Source: an uncultured bacterium
Lineage (GTDB): Bacteria > Acidobacteriota > Thermoanaerobaculia > Multivoradales > JAHZIX01
DNA length: 64,000 nucleotides
Reading direction: 5' to 3'
Assembly (NCBI GenBank): GCA_965368975.1
Contig: CBDUPA010000021.1
Coordinates: forward strand, 1 to 64,000
The position numbers and the translations under genes are program-made. Below are positions 40,395 through 57,023 of this stretch, piece after piece. Each line of letters starts with the position of its first letter. Positions within the stretch are counted from its first letter, which is position 1. The notes beneath the pieces are model-generated. The model made no database searches. It saw only the letters and a list, made by a program, of their open reading frames with translations, and was not told the origin of the DNA.

Positions 40395-40853
40395 ATGACA
40401 TCGCGCAAGCAGAAGACCCTGATCGCCCTGGCCGTCCTGGGCCTCACCCTGCAATTCGTCCCCTACGGCCATGGCCGCGACAACCCGCCGGTGACGCAAG
40501 AGCCCCCTTGGGACTCGCCACGCACGCGTGAGCTGGCTGTGCGCGCCTGTTTCGACTGCCACAGCAATGAGACGCGCTGGCCCTGGTACGGCTACGTCGC
40601 ACCCATCTCGTGGCTGCTCGTCCACGACGTCGAGGACGGCCGGCGTCACCTCAATTTCTCCGAGTGGCAACGCCCACAGCGCCATGCACACGAGGCTGCC
40701 GAGGAGGTCGTCGAGGGCGAGATGCCGCTGTGGCAGTACGAGTTGCTGCACGGCGAAGCACGCTTGACGGAAGCTGAACGGGGAGAGTTGGTGCGCGGTC
40801 TGCAAAGGACCTTGAGCCTCCGTTCCCGACGGAGCGGCGAGTCAACAGACTGA
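40395..40853 (+). CDS. Heme-binding-domain c-type cytochrome
   Basis: RACFDCHSNETRWPWY, HLNFSEW, GEMPLWQY. Confidence 0.88.
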   Translation: MTSRKQKTLIALAVLGLTLQFVPYGHGRDNPPVTQEPPWDSPRTRELAVRACFDCHSNETRWPWYGYVAPISWLLVHDVEDGRRHLNFSEWQRPQRHAHEAAEEVVEGEMPLWQYELLHGEARLTEAERGELVRGLQRTLSLRSRRSGESTD

Positions 40854-43738
40854 TGCCGGACGGAGGTGCCGCGACCACGGACTCGACCGGTAGCTCGATC
40901 GGCGCGCTACTGCGCTTCTTCGAGCGCTGCTACCACGCCGACAACCGCGAGACCTCGCTGCTCGACATCTTCGCGCGCCGCGTCGAGTTCCGGCAGTTTC
41001 TGGCCGGCACCCAGGATCTGCTGCAAGGCGACTATCCGCAGATGCCGGTGGCGGCGAACCCGGAGCACATCACCGCGATTGGACAGATCGCCCGCTACCA
41101 GCGCACCGAGAAAGCGTTGCTCCTGGCAGCGGTACTGGTCATCGGACGGTGCACCGACGAAGAGGGCAAGGCACACCGTCTGTGCGCTCCCGTGTTCCTC
41201 TTGCCGGCGCACATCGAGAGCAACGAGTACGCGCCCATGCTGCGGGTCGAGCTGGAGCGCTCACGCGTCAACTATCCACTGTTGCAAGCTCTCGGCGACC
41301 AGCACGATCTCGACGCCGAGCAGGTCCAGGATCTGGCAGAAGAGCTGCCCGCACCGCCTTGGCACCTGGGTCATCTCAGCCGCATCGCCGACCTCCTGGA
41401 GACGAGCTTTCTCGGTCTCGACGCTAGCGGCTTGCGGCTCTTCCCACGGCAAGAAGACGAGAAGAACATCGAGCGCTGGCGCCGCAGCAAAGCCTTGCGG
41501 GCCATCGTCGCGACACCGCTGGTGTTGCTCCCTCGCTCGCCGGATACCCGCGGCGTGCTCACCGAGTTGCATCGGCTCAGCAGCACTGGCGATGGCGGCG
41601 GCCCGACACCGGAGCTCTCCGCTCCGCTGCGCCTGCTGCTGCGCGACGAGACCGCCGGCGCGGCATCGCGACCGCCCTCAGCCTCTTCCCACGAAGCTGC
41701 TTTTGAAGAGCACGTCCCGGCCCTGCTCAGCGACGCGCAACACCGCGTCCTCGTCAACTCCGTCCGGCAACCGCTGAGCGTCGTCATCGGCCCGCCGGGG
41801 ACGGGGAAGTCTTTCACCATCGCCGCCATCGCGCTGGAAGCCGTCTACCGTGGCGAGTCGGTGTTGGTGGCGGCCCAGCGCGACCAAGCCGTGGACGTCG
41901 TCGCCGACAAGATCGAGCAACTCGGCGGACCTCACGAACTGATCCTGCGCACCGGCCGCAGCGAGTACCGACGGCAACTGCGGCAGACCTTGCGGCAGCT
42001 GCAGCGCGGTGTCCTGCCCTTTCCCCCGCTGCCACTCAACGCGCGGCAGGCCAAGGAGCGCGAACGCGACGACCTGCGCAGGCGCCTGCAGCAACGCGAA
42101 CAAGAGCTGACGGGGCGCAGCGAGCGTGAGCAGCGCTGGGGTCGCTGGCAGGTCGAGGCCGAGAATGCCCCGTGGTGGCAGCGCTGGCCACGGCGCACCG
42201 CCACCTGGACGCTTGGCCAGACGCTCACCGGCCCGCTCGCAACACCGTACTGGCAGCTGATGGACGGCTACCAGCAGCTCACCGAACGTTACCTGGAAGT
42301 GACGCTCGAACTGCTGCGCGACGCCTTCGTGCAGCGACTCGAACGCCATCGACCGCTGGTGGCCCAGCTGGACAAGGTGCTGCGCACGGTCGTCGAGAGC
42401 TTGCGCCGCGAGCGCTTCGATCAGCTCGACAGCGAGACGCTCTTCCGAGTGTTTCCGATCTGGATGTGCCGCCTGGCCAACCTGAACCTGACCTTGCCGA
42501 TGCACCCCGAGATGGTCGATCTGCTGATCCTCGACGAAGCCACACAATGCGACATCGCCAGCTGCCTACCCGCCTTCCAGCGCGCGCGGCGCGTCGTGGT
42601 GGTCGGCGATCCGGAACAGCTCCGGCACCTGAGCTTCCTGTCTCGGCATCGCCAGGAAGGCATCGCCCGCGAGTTGGGTCTGGAACCCAGGACCGTCGAA
42701 CGCTTCGACTACGCCCGGCACAGCATCCTCGACCTCGCCGAGGATCAGCTAGATGGGCAAGCAGGGGTGTTTCTGGACGAGCACTTCCGCAGCACACCCG
42801 AGATCATCGGCTTCAGTAATCAGAATATCTACGGCGGCACACTGAAGGTGATGCGCGAGCGCCCGCCACTGAGGGAACCCGAGTCGGCACAGGCCGAGTC
42901 GACACAGGCCGAGTCGACACAGCCGGCGCTCGAACTGCGACGCGTCGAGGGCCGGCGCGAGGACAGCGGCGCCAACCCGGCCGAAGCCGAAGCCCTGGTC
43001 GAGGCCCTGCTGTCGCTGGTGCGACCCGCGGAGCCGCTCAGGGCATCGATCGGTGTCCTGTCACCGTTTCGCGCCCAGGTCGACCTGCTCAGCGAGCTGC
43101 TGAGCCGCCGGCTGACGCCCGACGAACAAGAGCGCCACGACCTCCTGGTCGGTACGCCCTACGCCTTCCAGGGCGAGGAGCGCGACGTGATGCTGCTCAG
43201 CCTGGTGGTAGACGATGCCGTGCACGCCGGCTCCCTGCGCTTCCTGGCGCGCCGGGACGTGCTCAACGTCGCGGTCACCCGCGCGCGCAATCGGCAGATC
43301 GTCTTCAGCTCGCTCACCGCGGGTGGCGCTCGGCGCCTGCCGGACTTGCTGCGCGCCTACCTGCGCTACCTGGAAGCTCCGCCCGTGCCGCCCGTCGTTG
43401 CCACCTCCTCCCCTCATGCGACCACCGGGGCATGGCGACAGGAGACCTTCTTGCACCAGGTCAGCCGCGCCTTGCACGAGCGCGGCTGGCAGGTGTGGCC
43501 AGCGCAGCCGATCGCCGGCTTCACGGTCGACTTGGTGGTGCGCCGGGGCACGACCACGCTCGGCCTCGACCTGGTTGGACACCCGGGCCGCTACGCCGGC
43601 AGCTTCGCGACCGAGCGCTATCGCCTGTTCCGGCGCGCCGGGCTGCACATCCTGCCGCTGCCCTGCTCTGCCTGGGTTCGCTCGCCCGAAGCCTGCCTCG
43701 AGGCTGTTGAGCGGGTAGGGAGACTGGCGAGCGGGTAA
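40853..43738 (+). CDS. Superfamily 1 (Upf1/Dna2-like) helicase with C-terminal restriction-endonuclease-like domain
   Basis: GPPGTGKS, DEATQ, VGDPEQL, EHFRS, FQGEERD, NVAVTRAR; C-terminal QPIAGFTVDLVV. Confidence 0.85.
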   Translation: MPDGGAATTDSTGSSIGALLRFFERCYHADNRETSLLDIFARRVEFRQFLAGTQDLLQGDYPQMPVAANPEHITAIGQIARYQRTEKALLLAAVLVIGRCTDEEGKAHRLCAPVFLLPAHIESNEYAPMLRVELERSRVNYPLLQALGDQHDLDAEQVQDLAEELPAPPWHLGHLSRIADLLETSFLGLDASGLRLFPRQEDEKNIERWRRSKALRAIVATPLVLLPRSPDTRGVLTELHRLSSTGDGGGPTPELSAPLRLLLRDETAGAASRPPSASSHEAAFEEHVPALLSDAQHRVLVNSVRQPLSVVIGPPGTGKSFTIAAIALEAVYRGESVLVAAQRDQAVDVVADKIEQLGGPHELILRTGRSEYRRQLRQTLRQLQRGVLPFPPLPLNARQAKERERDDLRRRLQQREQELTGRSEREQRWGRWQVEAENAPWWQRWPRRTATWTLGQTLTGPLATPYWQLMDGYQQLTERYLEVTLELLRDAFVQRLERHRPLVAQLDKVLRTVVESLRRERFDQLDSETLFRVFPIWMCRLANLNLTLPMHPEMVDLLILDEATQCDIASCLPAFQRARRVVVVGDPEQLRHLSFLSRHRQEGIARELGLEPRTVERFDYARHSILDLAEDQLDGQAGVFLDEHFRSTPEIIGFSNQNIYGGTLKVMRERPPLREPESAQAESTQAESTQPALELRRVEGRREDSGANPAEAEALVEALLSLVRPAEPLRASIGVLSPFRAQVDLLSELLSRRLTPDEQERHDLLVGTPYAFQGEERDVMLLSLVVDDAVHAGSLRFLARRDVLNVAVTRARNRQIVFSSLTAGGARRLPDLLRAYLRYLEAPPVPPVVATSSPHATTGAWRQETFLHQVSRALHERGWQVWPAQPIAGFTVDLVVRRGTTTLGLDLVGHPGRYAGSFATERYRLFRRAGLHILPLPCSAWVRSPEACLEAVERVGRLASG

Positions 43739-52153: not shown

Positions 52154-52180
52154 CCCGGCCCCCGAGAGCCGGGAGCCGGG
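52154..52180 (-). terminator. Hairpin downstream of the cytochrome-porin operon
   Basis: CCCGGCTCCCG-gctct-CGGGGGCCGGG followed by TTCTGGTT on the minus strand. Confidence 0.55.
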
Positions 52181-52251: not shown

Positions 52252-54390
52252 CTAGAAGCTGTAGGCCAGCCCCAAGCTATAGAAGCTGACTTCGCCAGAC
52301 GTGTCGTAGAGGTACGGCGTGTCGTCCTGGAAGTCGAGATAGCGATACCCGCCGGTGACGGCCAGCTGCGCGGTGGCCTGATAGCGCAAGCGCAGCGCCA
52401 GCTCCAAGCGGGAGAGATCGAGATCGGAGTTGGTGTGGGTCAGGGTGAAGTCGTAACTCTGGTTGGGGTTGAGCAGAGTGCCGGGGACCTCGAAGTCGAA
52501 GGGCGCGAGGGCGGCTTCAGCCTCGGTCCACGCCAGATCCAATCCCAGTTCGAGTTCGTTCGTGGGCTGCCACTCGAGACCGGTGGCGATCACGCTGTCG
52601 TTGGTGTCGTAGTTGAGCAGAGTGCGTGCCGAGCCAGACTGGCCCGAAAGGATCGAGCCTGCTCAGCCATCGAAGATGGGGATGAACGATGGATACTTCA
52701 GCTCGGTATCGTGCCAGGCATAGGAGCCGTACCACTGCCAGGTCTCCGCCGGCGCCCACCAGAGAGTCGCAGTGAAGCTCTGGTGCGTGCGCGACCAGTC
52801 GGTGAAGTCGAGGTCTTCCGAGCCGTCGTTGTCACCGTCCCACCAGGTGTAGGAGGCGCTGAAGTTGCTCTTGCCGGTGGCGTACGTGCCCCCCAGCTTG
52901 ACCTCGTCCCAGCTCTCGGCGGCCGCCGTCGTGTCCGCGACGCGCGCGTCCTGGAACTCGTAGTATTGCGCCGCAGTCGGTGCGAAGGGGCTGGGAGCAG
53001 CACTCGAGACCAGGGTCGAGAAGGCACCGTCGACCGTCGCGAAGGGATGGTCGACCTGGCCGTGGCGATAGCCCGCGGACAGGCGCAGACCTTGGCGCGG
53101 CCTGGCCCACCAGCGCAGCCCCAGGACATTCTCGGTGGTGTCGGTCTCACCGAGCGCGACCTCGTAGTGATCCCGTCGTAGATCCTCGTACTCCCAGAGC
53201 AGCCGCACTCGCCCCGCCTTGCCGGGAAGCTTGGTGGTCAAGTCGAGCTTGGAGTCGAAGATCTCGCGGTCGAGGGCCGACTGTCGCAGGTAGTCTGGAT
53301 CGAAGCCGTAGACGTCACGGAAGGTACGACCAGCATGCGGCCCCGCAATGCCAGGCGGCTCGGCGATGTCGACGAAGATGTCGTCGCTGTCGATCTGCGT
53401 GTAGCGGCCACGCCAGCGCAGTTTCCAGCGCTCGTGGAAGGTGTGCACCGCGTTCACCGCATAGCCATCGTAGTGCGCCGACAACCCCGTGAGTTCGTTC
53501 TCGGTCTGCGACCAGACGCCACTGGCATCCAGGGCCAGGCCGCCGGGACGCGCGAAGCTGAGGGTCAGCTTGGCGATGTCCTTGCTGGTGTCTGGGCGCT
53601 GGTGCACCGGCTGCGGACCCTGAGCCGAGTCCCACTGCAGGCGGTTGTCGAACACCGGGACGCGCAACTCGGGTTGCAGGGCGTCGTCGAACAGAAGGTC
53701 GATATCACGCACACCTTCGCGCAGCTCGCGCCGGACATAGCTGGCGCGCAGCTGGGTGTGTTGCCAGGCATAGGAAACCTCGACACCGACGTCTTCCGTG
53801 CTCTCGTCGAGCGGCCGACTCTGACTGTAGACATGGCAGGAGTCGCAGTGCGAGATGGTGAGCGCCTGGTATTGCCCTTCGCGTTCCTGGCGACGGTAGA
53901 GCAAGGCCAGGGTGAGAGCATCCCAGTCGCGAGGTTGGAACTCGGTGCGATGCCGCAGGTCACTGTAGGTGAGCTCGTAGTCGGCAGCCGGATCCAGGTC
54001 GGTGTGATGGACGTAGCGGCCGTGATTGGTAGCCGCTTCGAGATTGGACAGTGGATCGTGACCCAAACGATGGAAGAGCTTCAGGAACTCGGTGCTCGAG
54101 CGCAGCTGACGCCCCCCCAAGTCGAACGCCAAGCGGTGCATCTGGTCGTCGTCGTCGCGCCAGTCGAGGTCGAGATCGAGAAAGCCCGCCTCCAGTGCGC
54201 TGGTGAAGCGTAGTTGCAGATCGACACCGCCATCGGTTGTCTCGTATTCACTGACCACATCGGGGGAGCCATCGACATCCGCATCCCAGACACCAACTTG
54301 CAGCTCACCTTCCTGGGTCTCCTCGGTGAAGCCCACTGCCGGCAGGACGAGCAGCATGCCCAGCAGCAAAGGGCAGAACAAGCGTTTCAT
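52252..54390 (-). CDS. MtrB/PioB-like decaheme-associated porin with a CXXCH motif and in-frame UGA (probable selenocysteine), 712 aa
   Basis: Track ORFs 52663..54390 and 52252..52593 are in one frame, separated only by TGA 52663-52665 (FIPIFDG-U-AGSILSG). Signal peptide; HCDSCH; C-terminal YSLGLAYSF is reached only by readthrough. Confidence 0.88.
52614..52665 (-). promoter_or_regulatory. Putative bacterial SECIS element
   Basis: mRNA: UGAGCAG-GCUCGAUCCUUU-CGGGCCA-GUC-UGGCUCG-GCACGCACU-CUGCUCA. A 7-bp lower stem includes the UGA; the 7-bp upper stem has a G-first loop with 23 nt between UGA and loop. Confidence 0.75.
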
Positions 54391-54405
54391 GATCTTCCTC
54401 CTCGC

Positions 54406-55359
54406 TTACCAGGTCAGGCCGCGACCCTGGCCGGGAACCGTCTGCGACGGCAGGTCCGAACCATGGACTCGGGAGTGGCACTGAGTGCAGCTGGTGGTGA
54501 AGGCGATGTTCATGCCGCGAGGGCCAAACGGGTTCTCACGCTCAAAACCGCCGATCTCCACTTCGTCACCTTCGCCGCCGCGATAGCCGGAGTGGAAGTG
54601 TGGCTCGTGGCACTGCAGGCACAGCGCCGGTTCGTTCGCCACCAGCAGGTTGTCCGCCACTGATCCATGCGGATTGTGGCAGCTCGAGCAGTCTTCTTGC
54701 ACCGGTTCGTGCTCGAAGACGAAGGGGCCTTCTTTGTCCTGGTGGCAGTCGTAGCACAGGTCGTTACTGCGCAGCGCGGTCCGTAGCTGTCCCTCGCGTG
54801 CGTTGTGCACGTCATGGCAGCTGGCGCAGTCCATCTTGCCTTCACGCAATGGATGGTGCGACGGCAGCCGGAAGCTGGCGACCACGGCGCCATGGCAATC
54901 CTGGCAACTGTCGAGTGATGCCACTCTCGTCTCGGCGCGGTGGACCGAGTGGCAGTCGGTGCAACCCACATCTTCAAGGGCGTGCGTCGAAGCGTGCCAC
55001 TGGCCCAGCCCTTTGACCTGGTGACACGAGAGGCAGGTCTTGTCGCCCCAGGTCGTATCACCAAAGCCGCCGATGCTCTCGGGCGTCATCTCATCAATGT
55101 GCACCGAGCCCGGGCCATGGCAACCCTCGCAGCCGGTCGCACGGCCTTGCACTTCAAAGGGCTGGATGCGCGCATGAATCTGCGCCAAGCCGAGCTGCAG
55201 GTCTTCGTGACAGGTTAGGCAGGTTTCGTCGCCGACGTACTCGGCGGGTATGCCATCGAGCGAGGCGCTTCCCGCCGGGGAGAGATCGGCAGGATGACGC
55301 GCCGCGACGGTCCCGAGTAGCACCAGCGACACTGAGCAGAAGAGCAGTGTGCCTCTCAC
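54406..55359 (-). CDS. Periplasmic decaheme c-type cytochrome, DmsE/MtrA family
   Basis: Ten CxxCH motifs: CLTCH, CEGCH, CLSCH, CTDCH, CQDCH, CASCH, CYDCH, CSSCH, CLQCH, CTQCH. Also GPFVFEHEPV and VHGSDLPS. Start GTG 55359 after GAAGGAGG. Confidence 0.95.
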   Translation of the reverse strand: MRGTLLFCSVSLVLLGTVAARHPADLSPAGSASLDGIPAEYVGDETCLTCHEDLQLGLAQIHARIQPFEVQGRATGCEGCHGPGSVHIDEMTPESIGGFGDTTWGDKTCLSCHQVKGLGQWHASTHALEDVGCTDCHSVHRAETRVASLDSCQDCHGAVVASFRLPSHHPLREGKMDCASCHDVHNAREGQLRTALRSNDLCYDCHQDKEGPFVFEHEPVQEDCSSCHNPHGSVADNLLVANEPALCLQCHEPHFHSGYRGGEGDEVEIGGFERENPFGPRGMNIAFTTSCTQCHSRVHGSDLPSQTVPGQGRGLTW

Positions 55360-55541
55360 GGCGGGACCTCCTTCCCTTGCTCCGCAAGTGCGAATCGCGC
55401 TCGGGAGCGAATTCATCGTCATCCCGAATTTAGCGCGACAGCGAACTACAGGCATCCACCGAGAGGAGAGTTAGTCCGCCGTCTGATCGGAGTGGTGGAC
55501 TGCCCGAAAGGGTAGCAAGAGGCGCTGCGGACTGTACCTTG

Positions 55542-56896
55542 CTACGTCACCGCGGTCTGCTGCCGGAACTCTCCTCTCCGCCACTCCTCGTCGATCATGA
55601 CCCGCCGCAGAGCTTCGACCGCATCCCACATGTCGACGTAGCGCAGGTAGAGCGGTGCCAAGCCGAAGCGCAGGACGTCTGGAGCGCGGAAGTCGCCGAT
55701 CACGCCTCGGGCGATGAGCGCTTGCACGATGGCGTATCCCTCGGGGTGGCGCAGGCAGACCTGACTGCCGCGCTGCTGGGCACCTTCAGGGCACGCCAGC
55801 TCGAGAGCGAAGTCTGCGCACCGCTCGGCAACGAGCCGCAAGAAGAGATCGCCCAACCGCATCGACTTGCGGCGCACCGCGTGCAGGTCGACGCCGTCCC
55901 AGACATCGAGAGCGGCGTCGAGAGCGGCCAGGCTGAGGATGGGGGGCGTGCCGCAGACGAAGCGCTGAATGCCGTCGGCGGGACGGTAGTCGAGGTCGAA
56001 GGCGAAGGGAGCTTCGTGGCCGAGCCAGCCACTGAGCGGTGAATGGACCCACGGCTGCAAGCGCTCGGCGACGTAGAGGAAGGCCGGAGCACCAGGCCCC
56101 CCGTTGAGATACTTGTAACCACAGCCGACGGCGAGATCGACGTTGCAGGCGTCCAGTTCGACGGGCAGTGCACCAGCGCTGTGGGCCAGGTCCCAGAGCA
56201 TCAAGGCACCCGCATCGTGGACAGCCCGGGTGACGGCTTGCATGTCGTGCTGGGCCCCGGTCCTGAAGTCGACGTGGGTCAGAGCGACGACCGCGACGGC
56301 ATCACCATGCTCGCGCAGGGCAGCGCTCAGACCTTCTGCGACAGGCTCGCGGCTGCACGGGGCGGCGTCGATCACCTGCACGCGGCATCGATCCTCCCCC
56401 AGAAGCCTTGCATGATGTAGAGGTCGGAAGGGAAATTGCCGCGTTCGGACAGGATGAGTGATAGGCCCCCTGGCTTGCCTGCGGCCCCCTTTGGCTTGCC
56501 AACAGCCCTCCCCGGCTTGCCAACAGCCCTCCCCGGCTTACCAACAGTAAAGTCGAGAGCAGCGGCGAGCAGTTTGAACAAATTGGCGGACGTAGAGTCC
56601 GCGACCATCACCTGGCCAGGTTTCGCCCCGACGAGCCGGGCGATCTTGTCGCCGGTACGGCGAGCCAGATCGATCCAGCCATGCTGATTCCAAGAGCGGA
56701 TGAGATCGTGCCCCCACTCCTGCGTGACCACCTGCTGCAGGCGCTCGGGGACCCCGAGCGGCAGGGCGCCGAGGGAGTTGCCGTCGAGGTAGAGAACACC
56801 TTCGGGCAAGGAAAACTCGAGGCGCAGGGATGCCAGGGGATCGTCGTGGTCGAGAGCGGCGCAAGCGTCGCGGCTAGCCAGGGCAGAAGCAGGCAT
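55542..56896 (-). pseudogene. kynU: Kynureninase split by a frameshift near 56400
   Basis: N-half has YLDGNSLG, LIRSWN and NFPSDLYIMQG. C-half, in another frame, has WDLAHSAG, GCGYKYLNGGPG, RGSQV and GDFRAPD. Confidence 0.85.
56464..56547 (-). repeat. 21-nt tandem repeat, about 4 imperfect copies, encoding GKPGRAV units inside kynU
   Basis: ggcttgccaacagccctcccc twice exactly (56493-56534) with degenerate flanking copies. Confidence 0.9.
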
Positions 56897-57023
56897 GGGT
56901 GATATGGTTACATACTACGAACCGTAGCAAACGGTTCCTCTGAAGCGAGTCTTGCATTGACGTCTGACGCTTTGATGTCGACTACGTCGAAGCACCCCAC
57001 CAGCAGGAGGATCTCCCAGCACC

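Follow-up and report, generated by a model that had tools for sequence, protein, structure and literature searches.

The window analysed here is a stretch of 64,000 nucleotides from a probable acidobacterium (contig CBDUPA010000021.1, positions 1 to 64,000), and the subject of this text is a pair of adjacent genes on its minus strand, one encoding a decaheme c-type cytochrome and the other a porin whose reading frame contains an in-frame TGA. Judging from sequence comparisons, this TGA is very likely decoded as selenocysteine (Sec), which would make the porin a selenoprotein of the OmcL/GSU2204 family. The features of the locus, in the order of transcription, are the following.

54406..55455, minus strand: decaheme c-type cytochrome gene (OmcK/GSU2203 type, DmsE/MtrA family), given as the longest open reading frame (ORF) including the TAA at 54406-54408, with ten CXXCH motifs.
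54397..54403, minus strand: Shine-Dalgarno-like GAGGAGG, read from the sequence, 6 nt before the porin ATG (54390) and within the 15-nt gap after the cytochrome stop.
52252..54390, minus strand: full-length porin gene (OmcL/GSU2204 family), 712 codons and TAG, running through UGA576; identified by NF041027, Pfam MtrB_PioB, the AlphaFold2 model and the structural match to MtrB.
53833..53847, minus strand: CDSCH, codons 182-186, putative covalent heme c site; the invariant CXXCH at the tight turn between strands 159-181 and 185-209.
52663..52665, minus strand: in-frame UGA, codon 576, very likely read as Sec; supported by the TGA/Cys column, the invariant G575, the Sec machinery and the DSSP strand assignment.
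52630..52646, minus strand: hairpin resembling a Sec insertion sequence (SECIS), with a 7-bp stem (52646-52640 with 52636-52630), the loop GUC at 52639-52637 and covariation.
52255..52662, minus strand: codons 577-712, lost if UGA is a stop; the last five barrel strands and the terminal Phe.
52154..52173, minus strand: terminator-like GC hairpin and T-rich tail, about 80 nt past the TAG; a weak call, with 1 site against 1.6 expected in shuffles.

The porin ORF as it would normally be read (54390-52663, minus strand) encodes 575 amino acids, ends in FIPIFDG and meets the TGA at codon 576. Past this codon the same frame is open for 136 more codons (577-712), ends in YSLGLAYSF and is closed by the TAG at 52252-52254, so that the read-through product has 712 residues, the last of which is Phe. 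An earlier note on this DNA had given all of these coordinates and counts correctly, and its proposal of a Sec-containing porin of the MtrB/PioB type, paired with a decaheme cytochrome, withstood each of the tests it had named, which concerned the residue at this column in homologues, the sel genes of the genome and the sequencing reads at the codon itself. The true start of the decaheme gene is uncertain; besides the ATG at 55455, a start further along the frame is possible, for example 55359, which was the one used in that note.

The porin matches the NCBIfam model NF041027, 'GSU2204 family CXXCH-containing (seleno)protein', with 540.1 bits (E 7.4e-162) against a cut-off of 350; an annotation of this name had been mentioned in the earlier note, and it is real. 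Residues 11-575 of the porin align to positions 3-580 of the 580 in the model, whose name ends in '_Se_pt_1' and which ends exactly at the TGA. Searching the genome with the same model gave a single porin copy (535.8 bits). Membership in the GSU2204 family is indicated not only by the score but also by the CXXCH motif, by Sec or Cys at the 'pt_1' end followed by a conserved continuation, and by the adjacent decaheme of the GSU2203 type. The Pfam family MtrB_PioB (PF11854) gives a marginal and partial match, 30.0 bits against a gathering threshold of 23, which extends over residues 315-690 and thus across the TGA.

The behaviour of the codon-576 column among homologues carries much of the argument for Sec. 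Searching 301 genomes of the phylum in all six frames gave 36 matches from 35 of them; 30 of the 36 run through the stop over residues 1-712, each with exactly one internal TGA, and six have none. In the column alignment, which consists of 30 loci from this search with 23-100% identity and includes several close kin (e.g. L025, L026 and L028), the column is TGA in 26 loci and Cys in four, within the motif [DNE]G-U/C-[AG][AG]G. G575, just before the UGA, is invariant, as is the CXXCH, and Phe is the terminal residue wherever the trimmed sequence reached the end. Two further named loci from metagenome-assembled genomes (MAGs; Acidobacteriota, Thermoanaerobaculia) show the same TGA behaviour at this column, and the acidobacterial origin suggested in the earlier note fits such named relatives. 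The 136 residues after the TGA are conserved as well, with the frame, the invariant residues and the terminal Phe kept down to 23% identity. Beyond the phylum, a profile census of 1.84 billion representative proteins gave 287 at E <= 1e-30, and a hand count of the best 150 of these found 111 that end at the Sec column, 14 of full length and 25 that are fragments or end elsewhere; five of the 14 full-length members have Cys at the column. An in-frame UGA conserved in orthologues, together with homologues containing Cys, is one of the general marks of a bacterial selenoprotein, and both are found here. As a separate observation, one complete genome of the phylum (G182:C1), in which selA is present, holds two porin paralogues (1587832-1589853 and 2155052-2157022), one with an in-frame TGA and one without.

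The genome of the window has the machinery for decoding UGA as Sec. Profile searches detected selA (445 bits), selB (344 bits), selD (344 bits) and a tRNA-Sec (73 bits) with the anticodon TCA, all above their curated or gathering cut-offs. A second match resembling tRNA-Sec (C2, 51.5 bits) proved to be a tRNA-Ser. The distribution of selA follows that of the two forms of the porin: it is above the cut-off in none of the four genomes that have only the Cys form (92-98% complete), in all five TGA genomes tested, and in one genome with both forms. The selD gene (G000:C6:48351-49277, locus L010) is a full-length match to TIGR00476 that itself contains one in-frame TGA, and SelD is therefore probably a selenoprotein in this genome.

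Judged by structure only, the region after the UGA also has what is expected of a SECIS, that is a stem-loop located 19-35 nt downstream, a G-containing apical loop and covariation. In the window the hairpin starts 19 nt after the U of the UGA and overlaps the codons of the conserved GQxGS peptide; the TGA loci share it as a stem of 6-7 bp with a GUU or GUC loop and the same start 19 nt past the UGA. For the covariation score 25 TGA loci were aligned, which gave 23 distinct rows; L039 was omitted for an insertion. In this set 83.6% of the hairpin cells are paired, and the covariation score of 0.304 compares with a mean of 0.126 after shuffling; none of 500 shuffles reaches it, and controls with slid partners stay at or below 0.171. 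Pair 20-36, for instance, is CG in 10 rows, GC in nine and UG in three. At least five of the seven stem pairs can form in 25 of the 26 TGA loci and all seven in 15, whereas the four Cys loci keep 5, 2, 1 and 2 of 7. After the Sec codon of L039 (G042:C1) there is an insertion of five codons, and a different hairpin, a possible alternative SECIS, lies nearer to the UGA.

The part of the protein encoded after the UGA is also needed for the predicted fold. The read-through porin was modelled with Cys written for Sec, using an alignment of 127 rows (29 full-length and 98 truncated sequences), and the AlphaFold2 model has a mean predicted local distance difference test score (pLDDT) of 93.3 and a predicted template modelling score (pTM) of 0.87. 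The best solved match is MtrB (6r2q_B), with a Foldseek E of 2.8e-22 and template modelling (TM) scores of 0.68/0.75. A second structural comparison (VIA) aligned 576 of 649 residues with MtrB, collinearly over residues 22-712, at Z 26.7 and a root mean square deviation (rmsd) of 3.0; the next-best match, at Z 17.3, is to the 22-strand TonB-dependent receptors. DSSP assigns 26 long strands and two short ones (126-131 and 452-458) to the model. Five of the long strands follow residue 576 (579-607, 613-628, 657-671, 676-689 and 699-711, with pLDDT mostly above 90), and therefore the modelled barrel cannot close without the read-through part. Sec576 itself is the last residue of strand 551-576 and is followed by a two-residue turn and strand 579-607; counting back from a periplasmic C-terminus places the tip of this hairpin on the extracellular side of the model. 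At the CXXCH (182-186) the long strand 159-181 turns tightly into the long strand 185-209, and in the model this tip appears to be extracellular too, provided that the two short strands are loop elements. With the short strands treated in this way, all long loops are extracellular and all short turns periplasmic, and the strand count equals the 26 of MtrB, which is supported by the collinear 3.0-Å superposition. The hairpins 159-181/185-209 and 551-576/579-607 are the longest in the porin.

Could UGA576 nevertheless be a true stop, with a 575-residue product and the downstream 136 codons as a separate small gene or a decaying remnant? Gene callers do give 575 amino acids, and a GTG at 52593 could open an ORF of 113 amino acids. 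However, this GTG is the first in-frame start possible past the TGA, it lies downstream of the conserved AG..GQxGS, and no purine-rich Shine-Dalgarno sequence precedes it. Neither a remnant nor a separate gene agrees with a downstream frame whose invariant residues and terminal Phe persist to 23% identity, with a model whose barrel closes only with the last five strands, with Cys-form homologues that are continuous through the column, or with a Pfam MtrB_PioB match that spans the TGA, and we regard a true stop as very improbable. Just as improbable, in our view, is a read-through that involves no selenium, whether through near-cognate suppression with insertion of Trp, Cys or Arg or through reassignment of the codon. 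Any read-through would give an open frame, and for that reason the open frame obtained with TGA as Sec is not by itself evidence of Sec. The alternative residue in homologues, however, is Cys and not Trp or Gly; a dedicated covarying hairpin follows the UGA in the TGA forms; and in the genomes tested selA accompanies the TGA form. A reassigned genetic code was rejected, since many relatives end the same gene with TGA as the terminal stop.

Several points weigh against decoding as Sec, or weaken the evidence for it. L039, although a TGA locus, lacks the consensus hairpin (1 of 7 pairs), and the Cys locus L033 retains 5 of 7. The single-sequence fold of the 86 nt in the window is not significant (z = -1.0), and Rfam has no family that matches around the UGA (best E 0.31). 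The locus counts overstate independence, because several of the loci are close kin. The sequencing data found for the locus consist of two contig-level DNA runs from one study, with no RNA run among them. A 508-nt contig from the public run X1, which covers only 52252-52720 and 53273-53537, spans 52252-52720 including the TGA with 0 differences and so shows the same codon at 52663-52665, but X1 may be the source sample of the window assembly, and hence this contig is not independent support; the pieces from run X2 are diverged relatives or fragments of the locus. With these points counted, Sec remains very likely as the residue at position 576. The UGA would be decoded by SelB and tRNA-Sec, directed by the hairpin built from the GQxGS codons, and we hold with considerable confidence that the locus encodes a genuine Sec-decoded porin of the OmcL type paired with OmcK.

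The porin gene of the window is very probably a genuine selenoprotein gene that has been mis-called. As the earlier note supposed, standard gene calling missed the full-length frame: the copy in the protein database (P0003) has 575 amino acids. A search of 5.8 billion proteins gave 103 homologues; almost all have 570-609 amino acids and align with just 77-81% of the read-through query, which means that they stop at the same place. With 111 of the best 150 census members ending at the Sec column, the OmcL porin is mostly stored truncated, and ordinary gene finders thereby remove its last five barrel strands. One public record, P0092 from a Methylomirabilota MAG, already bears the name 'GSU2204 family CXXCH-containing (seleno)protein' and is stored as 576 amino acids, truncated at the Sec codon. 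The degree of novelty that the earlier note implied was too high, given that NF041027 is listed as a family of predicted selenoproteins in a 2026 review of selenoproteomes (PMC13188914). For the window, the result is mainly a correct annotation rather than a discovery; it adds a new copy to a family that is already catalogued, and the find itself is not new, although a porin bearing selenium and perhaps a heme of its own would be unusual biology.

The gene that precedes the porin belongs to a known decaheme family, matching both NF041028 (GSU2203 family decaheme; 345.6 bits against a cut-off of 325) and TIGR03508 (DmsE family decaheme; 222.8 bits against 192.2), the matched part starting at residue 70. 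An ORF with 10 CXXCH motifs lies directly upstream of the porin in 26 of the 30 loci. Two further loci have an upstream ORF cut by the contig end (8 CXXCH) and the other two have no upstream DNA, so that the decaheme is found in all 28 loci where upstream DNA exists. Across the 30 loci no downstream gene is conserved beyond close kin, and in the window the pair is flanked on either side by housekeeping genes unrelated to it (DUF1015, a split kynureninase, phosphomannomutase and NAD synthase). Accordingly, the module consists of two genes. No surface decaheme of the MtrC/OmcA type was found in the immediate neighbourhood, which sets the locus apart from MtrCAB; a two-gene layout without an adjacent surface cytochrome is that of MtoAB and PioAB, which the window pair resembles. 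By analogy with MtrAB, the decaheme may thread the barrel and carry electrons across the outer membrane, and the OmcK-type decaheme and the 712-residue, 26-strand OmcL barrel would together make up an OmcKL-type conduit, a self-contained path for electrons through the outer membrane.

The likeness to MtrAB, MtoAB and PioAB consists of the MtrB fold, the Pfam MtrB_PioB match and a decaheme partner of the DmsE/MtrA family. Unlike MtrB, with which it shares 11-12% identity, the porin has its own invariant CXXCH in the barrel region and the Sec/Cys position, and it lacks an adjacent MtrC-like gene. From GSU2204/OmcL and GSU2203/OmcK nothing essential distinguishes the window pair: the CXXCH, the Sec column at the 'pt_1' end and the order with the decaheme upstream are the same. 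The OmcKL pairs compared here belong to Geobacter and the syntrophic sulfate reducers, whereas the window copy comes from a probable acidobacterium. In Geobacter, GSU2203 (OmcK) is reported to be up 2.7-fold and GSU2204 up 2.4-fold with hematite (PMC4070692). Murali et al. 2023 describe OmcL as the porin and OmcK as the cytochrome of an 'OmcKL' conduit in the partners of methane-oxidising archaea, and in HotSeep-1 they report it to be highly expressed, four-fold above OetABI (PMC10553843). The conduit is implicated in mineral reduction and in methane-oxidising consortia.

These two lines of work have been kept apart in the sources at hand. On the one hand, selenoprotein catalogues list the GSU2204 family without a function. 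Within the literature searched, NF041027 is named in PMC13188914 alone, and GSU2204 appears besides only in PMC4070692. According to the review the family goes back to Zhang & Gladyshev 2008; in the main text of that paper none of the terms 'cytochrome', 'porin' and 'outer membrane' occurs. On the other hand, the main text of PMC10553843 contains none of the words selenocysteine, selenoprotein and selenium; in the electron-transfer literature OmcKL figures as a porin-cytochrome pair of the ordinary kind, and in that paper the pair is not linked to the selenoprotein catalogue. Taken together, the two literatures suggest a testable idea: for electrons to leave the cell by this conduit, selenium and a heme bound by the porin itself may be needed.

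What role could Sec play in an outer-membrane barrel? We infer that Sec576 is redox-active, and the conservation of the porin suggests where it might act. C182, C185 and H186 are invariant in 28 of 28 full-length and in 127 of 127 aligned sequences. Also invariant in the 28 full-length porins are R170, G172, P240, F247, R250, R375, R406, Q475, R483, N521, W532, G575, U/C576, G586, S655, D689 and G699, and many of the invariant residues sit in long extracellular loops. Among the columns holding His, Met, Cys, Lys or Tyr, the residue types able to ligate heme iron, only C182, C185, H186 and U/C576 are invariant; H107, H111, H239 and K270 are conserved in 23-27 of the 28. With somewhat less than even confidence we propose that the invariant CXXCH carries an eleventh heme, in place of a surface cytochrome, and that Sec576 acts at or next to this heme. 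The heme and Sec576, at the extracellular tips of the two longest β-hairpins, would then form the terminal redox site of the conduit, with Sec576 as an axial ligand or an adjacent nucleophile, for which the heme-plus-Sec polysulfide/selenite reductase MccSep offers a precedent by analogy. Electrons would most likely be passed to, or taken from, substrates that are extracellular or insoluble, for example Fe(III) oxides, S0/polysulfide, selenite or partner cells. A more specific form of the idea, in which the porin, far from being a passive sheath, binds an eleventh heme covalently and Sec576, at the extracellular mouth of the barrel, serves this heme as sixth ligand or as catalytic neighbour, seems to us rather unlikely. 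If it were true, OmcK and OmcL would constitute a complete two-protein trans-outer-membrane oxidoreductase with a heme-selenium terminal step, the first on a β-barrel, analogous to MccSep but exposed to insoluble or extracellular substrates.

A joint site of heme and Sec has several observations against it. Going by strand order, the two hairpins stand on opposite walls of the barrel: they consist of strands 7/8 and 21/22 of 26, a separation of about 13-14 strands. The extracellular position of the CXXCH depends on counting 126-131 and 452-458 as loop elements. More distant members of the wider superfamily argue in the same direction: in nine of the 14 full-length sequences among the best 150 of the census the residue at the Sec column is Leu, Gly or Phe and the CXXCH is kept, from which it follows that Sec or Cys is not needed for the CXXCH site as such. 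Sec/Cys is a feature of the GSU2204 clade and not of every CXXCH porin, which argues against an obligatory heme ligand. Furthermore, Murali et al. treat OmcK as extracellular and not as inserted in the barrel (PMC10553843).

It may also be asked whether the motif binds heme at all. Alternatively, it would bind none and would form, with Sec576, a thiol/selenol centre that gates or regulates the conduit by selenylsulfide exchange. As no other Cys of the porin is invariant, Sec could find an intramolecular partner only in the CXXC, and a CXXC motif of Shewanella MtrB is described as functionally important; that motif, however, is N-terminal (C42/C45) and differs in position from the CXXCH of the porin (PMC12175506). 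The His of the motif is a further difficulty, since it is invariant in 127 of 127 sequences and in 13 of 13 distant full-length relatives without Sec or Cys, and a plain CXXC would not need it. A heme c on an outer-membrane barrel is, moreover, feasible, as fused cytochrome-porins such as Cyc2 suggest. A thiol/selenol centre without heme is therefore improbable.

In four distant MtrB-like porins that have the CXXCH and lack Sec/Cys at the column (P0180, P0188, P0203 and P0209), the strand that returns from the hairpin with this column contains YHHGS or YHFGS. From their sequences it is possible that His substitutes here for the function of Sec/Cys, and such a His-rich replacement is at least compatible with a Sec hairpin that faces the heme. 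Should the heme-selenium site exist, the relatives with a YHHGS hairpin would represent plain bis-His relay versions of the same design.

Two known systems combine some of these elements. Cyc2 of iron oxidisers is, like the proposed form of the porin, an outer-membrane β-barrel protein that itself carries one heme c. In Cyc2 the heme domain is N-terminal to a smaller barrel, and the protein is not known to have a decaheme partner or Sec. The other system, MccSep (ExtKL, GSU2937-2936), has a His/Cys-ligated heme and an essential Sec on a mobile D-G-U-P loop and reduces polysulfide and selenite (PMC13510729). It resembles the window porin in the Sec that follows Asp-Gly, it shares with the family the context of extracellular electron transfer in Geobacter, and its c-type heme would have a counterpart in the heme proposed here. 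However, no homology is detectable (NCBIfam gave only NF041027 for the porin), and MccSep forms no barrel but a pentaheme tetramer with an Ig-like domain. A separate Cys ligates the heme of MccSep; in the porin no further Cys is invariant. The D-G-U common to both proteins comprises three residues, is too short to weigh and may be due to chance. The earlier note had cited ExtI of Geobacter as a known Sec porin; this was mistaken, as ExtI is described as a porin without Sec, and the Sec protein of that cluster is the cytochrome ExtKL/MccSep (PMC5877670, PMC13188914).

Two other regions of the window may be mentioned. The kynureninase gene beside the module (55542-56914, minus strand) is split over overlapping stop-to-stop frames, 55542-56537 and 56372-56914, and positions 161-399 and 1-108 of TIGR01814 match separate ORFs; it is either a frameshifted pseudogene or the product of an assembly error. 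At 40853-43738 on the plus strand there is a 961-residue SF1 helicase (AAA_11/AAA_12) with a C-terminal domain resembling REase_MTES_1575, for which three anti-phage helicases, ProA, PLuB and Hhe, gave sub-threshold matches, so that a role in defence is possible.

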